A stretch of DNA of 64,000 bases from Octopus vulgaris (Eukaryota): assembly GCA_951406725.2 (NCBI GenBank), contig OX597817.1, positions 71,548,001 through 71,612,000 on the forward strand, written 5' to 3'. Made by a program: the position numbers and the translations under genes. Position 1 is the first letter of the stretch. Each line of letters begins with the position of its first letter. The notes beneath the pieces are model-generated. The model did no database searches, was not told the DNA's origin, and was given only the letters and a program-made list of their open reading frames with translations. This document shows positions 16,513 to 60,160 of the stretch, piece by piece.

Positions 16513-16709
16513 GGCAGTCACCATGATAGATCGGTAGCCACTACACACATTTGTTTTCTCTCCTTGTTTCTCTCCTTGTTTTTCTGTTACCCTTTCTGTA
16601 GAAGAGCGTAGGCTCGAAACGTAAAAGACTTTTTCAGTTCCTGAGCGTTTTACTAATACATCTGTTTGTTTTGTACACCACCTGTCTCTGTCTTTTCGTG
16701 AACTGTCCC
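16513..16709 (+). mobile_element. Hammerhead-bearing non-autonomous element (Penelope pLTR/retrozyme-like), copy 1
   Basis: Flanked by (TA)n; pyrimidine-rich 5' part, hammerhead, then cctgagcg...taatac...ttgt, as in the other copies. Confidence 0.7.
16592..16627 (+). ncRNA. Minimal type I hammerhead ribozyme motif (A6U variant)
   Basis: CUUU-CUGUAGA-A-GAGC(GUAG)GCUC-GAAAC-GUA-AAAG. Confidence 0.65.
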
Positions 16710-16919
16710 TATATATATATATATATATATATCCCCACCTTTTTTTTTTACTTCGAGCCAAAGAATGGTGACAAGTTTAAAGCATTATTTTCTAAAATTG
16801 TTAACTGATGGCGAAAGACTGCTGATGACGTTGGAAAACGAAATTTACTTCTGACGTACATTTCTTAACCCCTATTGACCTATGCCTTACTTTGATTTCC
16901 AAATATTATGAATAGATAT

Positions 16920-17172
16920 TGTATTTGTACGTTTCTTCTTCACCTTACAGTGCATCTGAATATTTCTGAATATAACGTAATTGTTCGTATTTTCAATTTG
17001 TGAGATTTAAATATTTCTTAGACTCGACTTACCCTCAAGACGTAGCCGAAGTACTTGAAGTAATGGTGCCTACAGGAACACAGAATCTGAAATGCAATCA
17101 TCTAGCAGAGACACTGACTTCGATATCAATTCAGGCGTCGTGCAAGATGATGCACTAACATCATTCCCATTC
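16920..17172 (+). repeat. Old duplicate of 18640-18890, including an RTE RT fragment and its non-TE flank
   Basis: ttgtatttgt...cagtgcatctgaat...tattttcaatttgt.agattta...gaaatgcaatcatct...gacttcga...gtcgtgca is shared. Confidence 0.7.
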
Positions 17173-17621
17173 AAGAAGGAAGAAAATGCCAAAATAAGAA
17201 ATGATTTGGTTGCTATTTCTTATAGGTTGTGTGATATCGTAAAGGATTCCTCAATGCATGTTTACTGAAGTTGATATTGTTGTTGTTGTTGTTTTTGTTG
17301 TTGCAGGAGTAGTAGTAGTAGTAGTAGTAGTAGTAGTAGTAGTAGTAGTAGTAGTAGTAGTAGTAGTAGTTGTTTAACATTACCCCATACTTAATCCAGC
17401 AGATATAAGCTTAAAGGCACCTTCAATTGTGAACACCTCATCCGTATATCACAGACACGATGCATCTTGTATTACATTAGCCAAGACTGGAGAAACAATT
17501 TTGCAGTTGATTTTAGCAAGCCTAGTGACTACGTAAAGACTCCCTCACTGACTTACATGATGAAAAATTCTTCGCCTATGCTTTCTAAAGAATAATATTT
17601 AAAAAAAAACAACCTTCTGCT

Positions 17622-17985
17622 ATAGGTGCAGGCGTGGCTGGTGTGTAAGAAGCTTGCTTTCTAATCCCATGGCTCCGGGTTCAGTTCCACTATGTGGCAG
17701 CAGCTTGGGCAAGTGTTTTCTACTATAGCTCTGGCCGAATGAAGCCTTTTGAGTGGATCTAGAATATTTATGTATATGTTTGTCCTCCACTACCACTTGA
17801 CAACCAGTGTCTGTGTGTTTACGTCCCTGTAACAGCGGTTCGGCAAAAGAGACCGATAAAATAAGTACCAAGCTTGGTAAAAAATTTAAGTACTGGGATT
17901 CATTTATTCAGCTAAAATTTCTTCAAGGTGGTGCTCCAGCATGGCCAGTGTCTAATAACTGAGACGAGTGCAAAATAAAAGATAA
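17622..17985 (+). mobile_element. SINE family B
   Basis: ggtgcaggcgtggctg head, ttgggcaagtg core, ggtggtgctccagcatggcc tail. Confidence 0.85.
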
Positions 17986-18749
17986 AAGATAATATTTCTG
18001 CAGAAAATGTTTACAGTAGTCGATGTTTTACTTTGCAACGAGGGTGCAGTCACAGTTAAGGCCTTCGATTTGCTTTCTGATAACGGATTCAATCTTACTG
18101 TATGCCATCGTGGCTATGTCTAACTTACCATAAGATTCGAACCGAACCCAGCATTGTGATGAGGAAAATTCTGTATAGAAGCTTGCTGGTTAGATTCTAC
18201 CAGTAATTTAAAAGGACCAGGCGTTACATACAGTATCACGCTCCATCTGCTTGAAGGTTAGGTTAAGTGTATGTATATATATATGTATATATATATATAT
18301 ATATATATATATATATATATATATATATATACATATATATATATATATATATATATATATATATATATATATATATATATATATATATACACATATATAT
18401 ATATATAAATATATATATATATCTACATATATATATATATATATATACATACATATATATATATATATATAAATAAATATATATATATATATATATATAT
18501 CTTTGTAATACTCAACCACTAACAAGTTAATACTACAAGTAACTAGTTCAAGTGATTGAATAACAGGAATGTATATCGTCGAAATCGACGTAAGATCCAT
18601 TTACTTAAGAATGTATGATAGTTGGAGATTGAATAAACATTGTATTTGTGCTTTCCTTCGTCTTAGTAGCCTCAGTGCATCTGAATTTATCTGAATATAT
18701 CTTGATTGCTCATATTTTCAATTTGTAAGATTTAGATATTTCTATTATC

Positions 18750-19660
18750 ACATCGACGTACCTTCCAGACATAGTAGCTGAAGTAATGAAGTTCTACAAG
18801 AACACAACAGCCGAAATGCAATCATCTGGAAGTGACACCGACTTCGACATCATTTCAAGTGTCGTGCAGTGATGCACTGGCACCAGTACCATTTTGCATC
18901 TGCCTGGGCTATGTTATTCGCACTTTAGTAGACAAAAGTAAAGAACTCAGTTTTAGTCTTACCAAAGCCACTTCTCGCTACTCAGGCACGACAATAACAG
19001 ATGCTGTCAATGGTATCGCTCGCTTTGCAGGTACCATTTCAGAAACTACCTTTCTTGTATGTAACTCTGAAATGCGTTGCATGTCAATGTCTAAAAATTG
19101 ATTACATTTGTTGCAATCAATAATCAAAATCAAAGAAAACACTTTAAAATTTCTTAAGAAATAACATCGCATTCACAGAAAAGAATTTTAAAAATTCTCC
19201 TTGAAAATCAAGGGTTGTTCTTGTTGTCCCCCATACCCTTTGGAAGTCACCCGTGCTGCAATGAAGTCTGACTGTCACTCACCAAGTACCAAGAGGCAAA
19301 GCTTAATAATTTGTGTACCCGCATTTAACGGGGAGGTCTGAATATATTTTGAAAAAAACCAACCGACTAAACAGAGACTGCTTGGCAGTATTCTTGCAAC
19401 CAGTGATATCATGAGAGAGAGAGAGAGAAAGAGAGAGAGAGAGAGAAAGAGAGAGAGAGAGAGAAAGAGAGAGAGAGAGAGAGAGAGAGAGAGAGAGAGA
19501 GAGAGAGGAAGACGCATGCATTTTGTAAGACTTGTTGTAGAGCTAAGAACTCATTAGTTCCTCTACATGGATACACACGGGTCGACCGTCCGGCAAAAAC
19601 CTTCATCAACCAGTTCTATATGGATACGAGATGTTTCCCTGCTGAACCACTGTACTCGGC
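18750..19660 (+). mobile_element. Degraded RTE/RTE-X LINE (RT and C-terminal remnants)
   Basis: DALAPVPFCICLGYVIRTLVDKSKELSFSLTKATSRYSGTTITDA (cf. GDTLAPFLFIICLDY...ITDADYADD), later QPTKQRL...SDIMR(ER)n and HGYTRVDRPAKTFINQ. Confidence 0.75.
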
Positions 19661-58544: not shown

Positions 58545-58860
58545 AGATTTGTGAGACGGAAACTGAAAGAAGCCCGTCGTGTATACACACACACACACAC
58601 ACACACACACACACACATACACACATATATATATATATATATATATATATGTATGTATATATATATTTGTGTGTCTGTGTTTGACCCACCACCATCACTT
58701 TACAACCGATGGTGTGTTTACGTCCCCGTAACTTAGCGGTTCGGCAAAGGGACTGGCAAAATAAGTACTAGGCTTACAAAGAATAAGTCCTGGGATTGAT
58801 TAGTTCGATTAAAGGCGGTGTTCCAGCATGGCCAAAGTCAAATGACTGAAACAAGTTAAA
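58545..58860 (+). mobile_element. SINE family B, 3' two-thirds
   Basis: gacggaaactgaaagaagcccgtcg...ccccgtaacttagcggttcggc...cagcatggccaaagtcaaatgactgaaac. Confidence 0.9.
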
Positions 58861-58993
58861 AAAGAGAGAATATATATATATATATAAAACTCAACTTTTG
58901 AGAATTTGTAGTTCGTAAGATAGTTGAGTCATCAACATAATTAATAAGATTATATCTAATTAATAAAATAAATATATAAAATAAATGACTTAC

Positions 58994-59035
58994 CTCAACA
59001 TGAAGGAAACAGTACAGAAAGGAGAGAATCAACCC
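58994..59035 (-). CDS. 42-nt TM7 exon of the class B1 GPCR (GLILSFLYCFLHVE)
   Basis: ctttttgtttcag|GGG...GAG|gtaagt. Length, phase 0-0 and sequence match the conserved (Q)|GFFVAVLYCFLNGE| exon of secretin-family receptors. Confidence 0.92.
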
Positions 59036-59269
59036 CTGAAACAAAAAGAAAGCATCACCGATATTATAGAAAATATTGATTTATTATTAAAAGAGAATCA
59101 AGATATAAGTCGCAATGTCTAATTATCTGAGATCAGTCGTTGTTAATAACATTTTAATTGTTAGTTTTGTTAATGCTATTGTCGAAACGAGCTTCTGTCA
59201 TCTGCTATAAGCGCTTAAAAAATTAAAGTAATTATCTATGAACTTTAACTTTTATCTGTGACAATCATT

Positions 59270-59632
59270 GAACTGCTGCCATGCTGGGGCACCGTATTCA
59301 GAGATTTAGTCGAGAAAATTGACCCCATAATTTATTTGTAACGCCTGGTAGTTATTTTATCGGTCACTTTAGATGAACTGCTAAGTTACGGGGATATAAA
59401 TAAACCAACACCGGTTGTCAAGTGTAAGATGGGGACAAACACAGCACAAACAGAAAGACACATACATGACATGCTTCTTTCAGTTTCCTTCCACCAAATC
59501 TGCTTCCAAGGTTTTGGTCGGGTTAGTGTTTTAGTAGAAGAAACTTGCCCAAGATACCGCGCAGTGGGACTGAATCCCAAACCGCATGGTTTGGAGGCAA
59601 GCTCCTTAATCACATATCCTTGTTTGCACCTA
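59270..59632 (-). mobile_element. SINE family B
   Basis: gccatgctggggcaccg...ctaagttacgggga...cacttgccca-like core...gcagtgggactgaa. Confidence 0.85.
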
Positions 59633-59954
59633 TTTACTTTAGGTTTGTTTTTATATAATTTGTAAAATGAGACAGATTTGCATTCCGTGATAAGAAATAA
59701 TTACTGAGAAGTCAGTATATTGGAAGCTTTGAATGAATTGGAAAACTAATATATATATATATATATATATATATATATATAAAGCTGTGTGGTAAGAAAC
59801 TTGCTTGCAAACTATATGGTTCAGGGTTCAGTCCCATTGCGTGGCACTTTGGGCAAGTGTCTTCTACTATAGCCTCGAACCGACCAAAGCCTTGTGAGTG
59901 GATTTGGTAGACGGAAACTGAACGGAGCCCGTCGTATATATATATATATATAAT

Positions 59955-60160
59955 TTTAATCCAAATGGGAAAACAAAAAAACAACAACAGTGGAACAATT
60001 ACAGTATTATTATTAATAGGCGCTCAGGAAATATGGAAGCAGGAAGGTATGACGTTTCGAGCGGAGCTCTTCGTCGGAAACATAAAGAAGGAAGAGAGAG
60101 GAAAGAAAGATCCCAAAGCGGGCAACAGGAGATGGAGAAAAAAACGACTGGTGTTTACGA
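59955..60160 (-). mobile_element. Hammerhead-family element, copy 5
   Basis: Reverse complement ends ...cctgagcgcctattaataat...ttgttccac...tttggattaa, like copy 3; (TA)n on both sides. Confidence 0.75.
60047..60081 (-). ncRNA. Minimal type I hammerhead motif (U4C variant)
   Basis: GUUU-CCGACGA-A-GAGC(UCC)GCUC-GAAAC-GUC-AUAC. Confidence 0.65.

Follow-up and report, generated by a model that had tools for sequence, protein, structure and literature searches.

A window of 64,000 nucleotides from Octopus vulgaris (assembly GCA_951406725.2, contig OX597817.1, positions 71,548,001 to 71,612,000, forward strand) contains dispersed copies of an element of about 200 nt that carries a minimal hammerhead ribozyme motif. 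The explanation considered probable, if only by a small degree, is that the element is a short non-autonomous derivative of the tail of a Penelope-like element (PLE), that its ends are fixed and it was inserted into (TA)n by copying in trans, and that its source copies kept a slow hammerhead of the dimer type. The copies are homologous, similar in length and ends, and abundant; their core is conserved and nearly identical to that of PLE tails, and one of them, c5, is inserted in (TA)n. The family itself is ordinary, a minimal type I hammerhead of the PLE kind, which is published, well catalogued and common in animal genomes. The copies and their parts are as follows, in positions of the window.

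16513..16709, plus strand: c1 element, ~197 nt, bounded by TA tracts; near a very abundant subfamily.
16592..16627, plus strand: minimal hammerhead of c1, with CUUU/AAAG as stem I, a CUG-U6-A7-GA core followed by an extra A, GAGC(GUAG)GCUC as stem II, then GAA and ACGU; cleavage predicted 3' of A16623.
16640..16658, plus strand: c1 distal conserved motif (CUGAGCGU-H...CUAAUA), like a second stem III / GUH / stem I half-site.
23240..23373, plus strand: c2, probable decayed copy; core remnant at 23293-23325 with stem II broken, distal motif at 23351-23366.
44365..44562, plus strand: c3 element; hammerhead at 44430-44464 with intact CUGACGA, 15.1-16.1 = AGAU and H=U; then (TA)25.
46243..46445, minus strand: c4 element; hammerhead at 46378-46344 with CUGAAGA, G.U at 10.1-11.1, AGGU and H=A.
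59955..60160, minus strand: c5 element; hammerhead at 60081-60047 with U4C, ACGU and H=C; sits in the (TA)n of a host repeat.
59784..60406, minus strand: host dispersed repeat split by c5 into halves 59784-59934 and 60194-60406.

The window was scanned with the core pattern CUGANGA-A-GAGC(loop)GCUC-GAAA, one mismatch being allowed in the 7-mer, and matches were found at 16596 and 44434 on the plus strand and at 46374 and 60077 on the minus strand. The bare pattern is near chance, as shuffled windows give 0 to 4 matches with a stem II of at least 4 bp, so the case rests on homology and on family-wide conservation. Hidden Markov models (HMMs) built from the other three copies recovered c1 with an E value of 7e-8, c3 with 2e-19, c4 with 6e-16 and c5 with 5e-17; by blastn, c3 is 69% identical to c4 and 72% to c5. 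The homology of these four clear copies spans 150-200 nt. In all four, C3 lies 62-83 nt from the 5' end and the 3' end lies 86-105 nt past H17; the 5' starts agree to ~20 nt relative to the core, and an ATCG-type 5' motif is common to three. A preliminary description of the window had listed five colinear elements, of which these four stand while c2 is retained only as a probable decayed member. Its HMM score is weak (E 0.03-1.3, equalled by 1 of 500 local shuffles), it was missed by an HMM of the core and 3' part and by a covariance model, and its stem II cannot form. However, 15 of the 16 positions at 23351-23366 agree with the downstream motif read independently from further copies of the family (0 of 100 shuffles), and for this reason c2 is counted as probably a real member of the family. 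A covariance model built from the four cores gave no further copy in the window below E 0.17. All copies in the window are monomers, with no tandem (head-to-tail) copy among them.

Over the 11 core positions, 60 of 66 pairwise matches are kept among the four clear copies (91%), as are 45 of 48 in stem II. The flanks are far less alike (186/376 upstream and 268/486 downstream, or 50-55%), and the proposed conservation of the core relative to its flanks is thereby upheld, with the reservation that the copies were first noticed by their cores and the contrast is partly ascertained. Because the flanks are only 50-55% identical, the copies appear to belong to several subfamilies, and their earlier reading as simply dead copies of one consensus is not borne out. 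The canonical CUGANGA is found in c3 and c4; c5 has U4C and c1 departs at position 6. An unpaired extra A stands between A9 and 10.1 in all four, and G10.1-C11.1 is present in three, c4 having G.U. These features match the definition of the PLE minimal hammerhead (PMC4209133), as had been proposed. The extra base had also been compared to viroid and satellite hammerheads; it is a listed hallmark of the PLE kind, together with G10.1-C11.1 and the palindromic 15.2-16.2 (PMC4209133). The palindrome ACGU, given in the preliminary description as a loopless stem III, is present in c1 and c5, and c3 has AGAU and c4 AGGU in its place. Both of the latter have G at 15.2 (44456-44459 in c3, 46352-46349 in c4), and each is one change from the palindrome AGCU of other PLE hammerheads (PMC4209133); from the sequences, this G could mark a subfamily rather than decay.

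The loop of stem II was said to vary freely, and it does so in the four clear copies (GUAG, UCC, UUU and UCC); the fourth form reported, UUAA, belongs to the broken stem of c2. The named structure is paired in 92.5% of cells, and the alternatives obtained by sliding it in 17-45%. The compensatory swap claimed for stem I is visible at the closing pair, which is C-G, A-U, G-C and G-C across the four, and 93.8% of the cells of this stem, which has 3-5 bp in PLE minimal hammerheads, are paired, with one pair changed on both sides. Folding of the whole element was no better than that of shuffled sequences for c1 (z -1.59) or c5 (z 0.40). Complementarity between the two ends of the element was considered and dropped, since it was seen in c1 alone (24 of 1000 shuffles; 290-654 of 1000 for c3-c5).

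Alternating TA begins no more than 2 nt after the element in all four clear copies, compared with ~3% of window positions, a count partly built in because the element ends were partly drawn at TA tracts. An uninterrupted allele of the host repeat of c5 is found at 7760-8280 and forms a filled and empty pair with it. Thus, c5 entered the TA tract of a host repeat cleanly, and the association with microsatellites that had been noted earlier holds. Host repeats of this type carry an internal (CA)n(TA)n tract (for example at 7760-8280 and 59784-60406) and have many copies in the window; they therefore supply targets for the hammerhead element. Furthermore, c4 lies against one half of a repeat of this type, at its microsatellite end and in the opposite relative orientation, as expected since the (TA)n target is strand-symmetric. 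c2 is followed by another host repeat from 23374. For c1, no empty-site joint was listed in four sequencing runs. (TA)n is described as a preferred target of PLEs and is tied to the CX2-5CxxC linker of Neptune (PMC8557442).

Contigs of the four runs (X3, X6 and X8, presumed to be DNA, and X15) were aligned to 16300-17290 at 80% likeness. The 1.3-kb stretch around c1 was matched in presumed-DNA runs of four coded organisms. On the c1 region, 18,516 contigs were placed from X3, 11,521 from X6, 7,851 from X8 and 4,083 from X15, almost all of them on the element, and the description of a high-copy family is in keeping with the 7,851-18,516 contigs per presumed-DNA run. Depth is concentrated in 16504-16707 with its peak on the core, and outside it is at the single-copy level or zero. 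In X3, X6 and X8 the summed depth at 16616, which is no copy number, is 1.5-2.6 x 10^5 times that of the flank, and the end bins reach 5,000-35,000 times flank depth. For a genome of 2.7 Gb, four copies per 64 kb extrapolate to about 170,000. From contig depth and this extrapolation, the size of the family is roughly of the order of 10^4-10^5 copies. X15, only guessed to be RNA, has depth in 7 of 30 bins and is not taken as evidence of transcription.

The variants among these contigs, tabulated above a threshold of 5% in a table that is complete by its own tally, fall on particular positions of the motif. N7 (16600) shows all four letters, with a non-reference share of 35% in X3 and 52-54% in the other runs. 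H17 changes from A to U in 2-22% of contigs and has no row for G. The CpG sites 16616, 16620 and 16621, the last two of them in ACGU, have other letters in up to about 10%, and one stem I base varies on each side (16590, 16627). No variant of at least 5% was found at C3, U4, G5, position 6, G8, A9, the extra A, stem II, A13, A14, A15.1 or U16.1. Since N7 and H17 vary and the rest of the core is fixed, the pattern suggests a hammerhead under selection for the ribozyme fold in its source copies, in a sample of contigs at least 80% like c1 that favours conservation.

The U of c1 at position 6 (16599) had been taken for a private lesion, such as each copy was thought to carry. No alternative letter reaches 5% there in any of the four runs, and changes that are private to c1 do appear in the table (16588, 16589 and 16650, at 96-99%). 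Because 16599 has no variant row and 16600 shows all four letters, U6 appears to be common to a large GUAG-loop CUGUNGA subfamily that c1 represents, rather than a break in this copy; the reading depends on an absent table row, on one alignment and on how contig ends are clipped. For relatives of the A6 type, such as c3-c5, the alignment probably starts no earlier than stem II, in agreement with the rough doubling of depth between 16600 and 16616. A pattern with the U6 core gave 0 matches in metagenome and viral contigs, which says little as these collections hold little animal DNA. Among the papers listed by literature searches, none was listed as treating a natural A6U hammerhead, and the small PLE-associated variants of Lunse et al. 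2017 may already cover such forms. So abundant an A6U core has apparently not been reported.

The canonical core pattern was found at no fewer than 121 metagenome loci, and 87 of the 128 matches listed are the Acropora Neptune motif. Seventeen of the 121 listed loci match PLE proteins with reverse transcriptase (RT) and GIY-YIG domains, and in 15 the protein match lies on the strand of the hammerhead and ends at most 300 nt 5' of it. In one locus, L019, a piece of open reading frame (ORF) 102 nt upstream of the hammerhead resembles GIY-YIG clusters and belongs to RT + GIY-YIG proteins, one related member of which has a CX4CxxC linker. Long ORFs beside the hammerheads of L018, L012 and L031 proved to be unrelated host genes. 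Some metagenome hammerheads occur as pairs on opposite strands, back to back and ~40 nt apart (L001:3501-3564, L024:322-387, L026:3501-3564), with similar opposite-strand pairs in L061, L065, L067 and L071; this is the inverted arrangement described for PLE insertions.

With regard to cephalopods, an annotation of O. vulgaris assigns 6.83% to Penelope-like elements, in 190 families of which 31 have recent insertions, and in the text and supplement as available it leaves hammerheads unmentioned (PMC13282606). The family may be in that repeat library already, unlabelled. A paper on the giant squid reports 235 Rfam hammerhead hits (PMC6962438), and the accessible parts of PMC8967140 and PMC12602865 do not mention the hammerhead. 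As judged from the listings, no paper retrieved on octopus hammerheads and Penelope describes the family in the window.

The course of events under the favoured explanation is the following. The origin of the ~200-nt element is likely the terminal repeat at the 3' end (pLTR) of a Neptune-type PLE. RNA would be made from a source copy. The ACGU of the hammerhead would pair with that of a second copy to form a dimer, and a slow cut would be made after GUH. RT and GIY-YIG endonuclease of a PLE, the mobilising partner that we infer along with transcription and cleavage, likely acted in trans, and reverse transcription would be primed at a nick in (TA)n. Several source copies, among them that of the large GUAG-loop U6 subfamily, would have diversified under selection for the ribozyme fold. 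The single genomic copies in the window are likely inert, as they are lone monomers and c2-c5 have damaging changes.

A number of results weigh against this explanation. The score of stem I is reached by 44 of 500 shuffles, so covariation is not significant with four sequences. The comparison with Rfam that the preliminary description had suggested was negative: its covariance models gave 0 matches at E<=10 on 16560-16690 (c1), and among 150 of 248 window matches listed there was no hammerhead, only microsatellite-driven matches of the microRNA type. Twelve PLE proteins compared with the window by tblastn gave a best E value of 0.075 at 3248-3304, far from the copies; a Pfam scan of 73 of the 241 listed frames found no PLE domain, and no ORF for RT + GIY-YIG lies 5' of the hammerhead at the copies. 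PLE minimal hammerheads cleave poorly even as dimers (PMC4209133), and changes at position 6 are reported to lower hammerhead activity (PMC3088659); for both reasons the U6 form may be inactive. A natural A6C hammerhead, that of phage Bcep176, has a low but detectable activity of <0.1 per minute (PMC3088659). Outside the core of ~30-50 nt there is little likeness to the metagenome PLE tails, and a TA run lies within 150 nt downstream in only 5 of 111 metagenome motifs. As judged from their sequences, the metagenome loci are relatives of the motif and not of the (TA)n insertion habit, and the label "Neptune" is thus one of motif and target, not of descent. The limits given above for contig depth and for the sampling at 80% likeness also count here.

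The possibility was considered that the copies are 5'-truncated 3' tails of autonomous PLEs, that is, solo pLTRs, with no separate non-autonomous lineage. This is clearly less likely than the favoured explanation but has to be taken seriously: most PLE minimal hammerheads are single motifs, probably from truncated PLEs (PMC4209133), most of the listed metagenome hammerheads also have no ORF next to them (one is present at 15 of 121), and the octopus annotation contains the share of Penelope-like elements given above. However, the 5' starts of the four clear copies agree to about 20 nt relative to the core and three share the ATCG-type 5' motif, the shared upstream length among metagenome copies is 45-567 nt (best 40 of 63), and no loose end lies before 16513 among the best-supported ones listed (X3, X6, X8). 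It seems very improbable that the motif is a relic without catalytic function, or a signal bound by proteins, in a family that spreads like an ordinary short interspersed element and merely inherited its hammerhead look. This reading would accommodate the U6 of the large subfamily and the departure of every clear copy from the canonical motif; moreover, Naiad PLEs proliferate without canonical hammerheads (PMC8557442), and 8 of 9 Xenopus retrozyme dimers failed to cleave (bioRxiv 10.64898/2026.07.22.740005). It is at odds with variation that is concentrated on N7 and H17, positions free in hammerheads, with the lack of G at H17, and with a stem I closing pair in three different Watson-Crick forms.

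The copies might also be dispersed monomers of a non-LTR retrozyme, whose head-to-tail arrays would give transcripts that are cleaved into ~200-nt monomers, which then become circular and are inserted anew. A unit of this length falls within the 170-400 nt known for metazoan retrozymes (PMC7229834), and tandem retrozymes and dispersed monomers alike are described as derived from pLTRs (bioRxiv 10.64898/2026.07.22.740005). In X15, six contigs extend upstream of 16513 into a 30-nt string whose last 6 letters are those of the c1 3' end, an ending shared by 4 of 4,495 pyrimidine-rich 32-mers of the window. However, the whole string fits the c1 end no better than 283 of 1,507 such 32-mers and could be the flank of one locus. 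The absence of a tandem copy from the window also speaks against a retrozyme, as do the ends of the element, which are off the cleavage site and not permuted between copies, and the canonical type I hammerheads carried by the retrozymes of PMC7229834. On balance a retrozyme origin is unlikely.

A further motif, 22-32 nt downstream of ACGU, is kept in all five copies and looks like a repeat of the 3' part of the ribozyme. It reads GCGU-H then AAAC in the consensus of loose ends from other copies, and in c2 it is a perfect ACGU-C-AAAC; CGTHAWAC has a frequency of ~0.002 per 60 nt in the window. In c1, the distal motif can close a 4-bp stem III in cis (4/4 pairs, ensemble probability about 0.5). 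In c3, it pairs instead with the 3' strand of stem II (probability 0.5), and neither pairing forms in c2, c4 or c5. It may be an old internal duplication without a role. On a more ambitious reading, this would be one of the largest known genomic hammerhead populations, its dominant A6U subfamily would be active, and GCGU-H-AAAC would close stem III in cis, or switch against stem II, with no dimer needed. If so, a lone 200-nt element could cut host transcripts that contain it. We hold this reading to be unlikely: the cis stem III is broken in c2, c3, c4 and c5 (2-3 of 4 pairs), and the distal stem I pairs only 1-3 of 4 positions in all five copies.

The window is rich in microsatellites, with 158 tandem-repeat rows, and contains remnants of long interspersed element (LINE) reverse transcriptases and two abundant dispersed repeats of octopus-like appearance. 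The second of these repeats, also with many copies, is seen at 9497-9913, 23374-23596 and 57739-58207. Two further hammerhead-like stretches were noted. On the plus strand, 51222-51275 has a core of a different family (CUGAUGA-G, a 6-bp stem II of AGGAUG/UAUCCU, GAAA) followed by CAGG and thus without UH; it occurs only once in the window, and Rfam gives no match to a hammerhead there. The other, 16822-16850 on the plus strand, reads CUGAUGA-C-GUU(GGAA)AAC-GAAA with a 3-bp stem II, lies ~110 nt 3' of c1 at single-copy depth, and is probably chance or a very old relic. The 3' parts of LINE reverse-transcriptase ORFs lie at 35705-36837 (Pfam RVT_1, E 7.5e-8) and 52807-53838 (E 7.3e-6), both on the plus strand, and a helix-turn-helix remnant (HTH_28, HTH_23), likely of a DNA transposase, at 6828-7073, plus strand. 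Self-complementary hairpins of ~155 bp, like those of miniature inverted-repeat transposable elements, occupy 44758-44915 (83% arm identity) and 46038-46194 (77%), the latter directly adjoining the microsatellite of c4. A further repeat at 17184-17251 has a depth of about 1,000 vs 42 in X3, amid single-copy DNA.

What sets the family apart is that the textbook-invariant A6 has apparently been replaced by U in a lineage still amplifying while N7 and H17 drifted. The U6 lineage puts the need for cleavage by PLE hammerheads to a natural test, in a form that standard CUGANGA descriptors and Rfam would overlook. Additionally, 10^4-10^5 copies in several subfamilies would be enough for a real covariation analysis, the downstream half-site included.

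Compared with metazoan non-LTR retrozymes (PMC7229834; bioRxiv 10.64898/2026.07.22.740005), the element is likewise non-coding, ~200 nt long, equipped with a type I hammerhead and dispersed as monomers, and PLE-dependent mobility is proposed for both. Retrozymes, however, are defined by tandem arrays and circular RNAs, whereas the window copies are all monomers and the sequence data are assembled contigs. The Bcep176 hammerhead also has a natural change at position 6, but as A6C at a single locus; here the change is A6U, apparently in many thousands of copies, with N7 free. Neptune and the (TA)n-targeting EN+ PLEs (PMC8557442) share insertion in (TA)n without a discernible target-site duplication and a hammerhead near the 3' end, whereas no RT or GIY-YIG ORF and no partial-tandem or inverted structure is present at the window copies.

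The closest likeness is to the PLE minimal hammerheads of PMC4209133, which are mostly single dispersed motifs, highly diverse within one genome. The two have in common CUGANGA, one extra base, G10.1-C11.1 and the loopless palindromic 15.2-16.2, as well as a short stem I, a U-rich 5' flank and mostly solitary dispersed copies; from the Acropora digitifera Neptune motif of that paper, the c3 and c5 cores are set apart mainly by the loop and by a single base of stem II. No cephalopod is in the paper's list as available, and no PLE ORF adjoins the hammerheads of the window. It differs further in the U6 of a major subfamily, which is absent from the rows of Fig. S3 examined, in an estimated 10^4-10^5 copies as against about 2,000-9,000 per genome there, and in its uniform ~200-nt unit, placed in (TA)n and carrying a conserved second half-site downstream.

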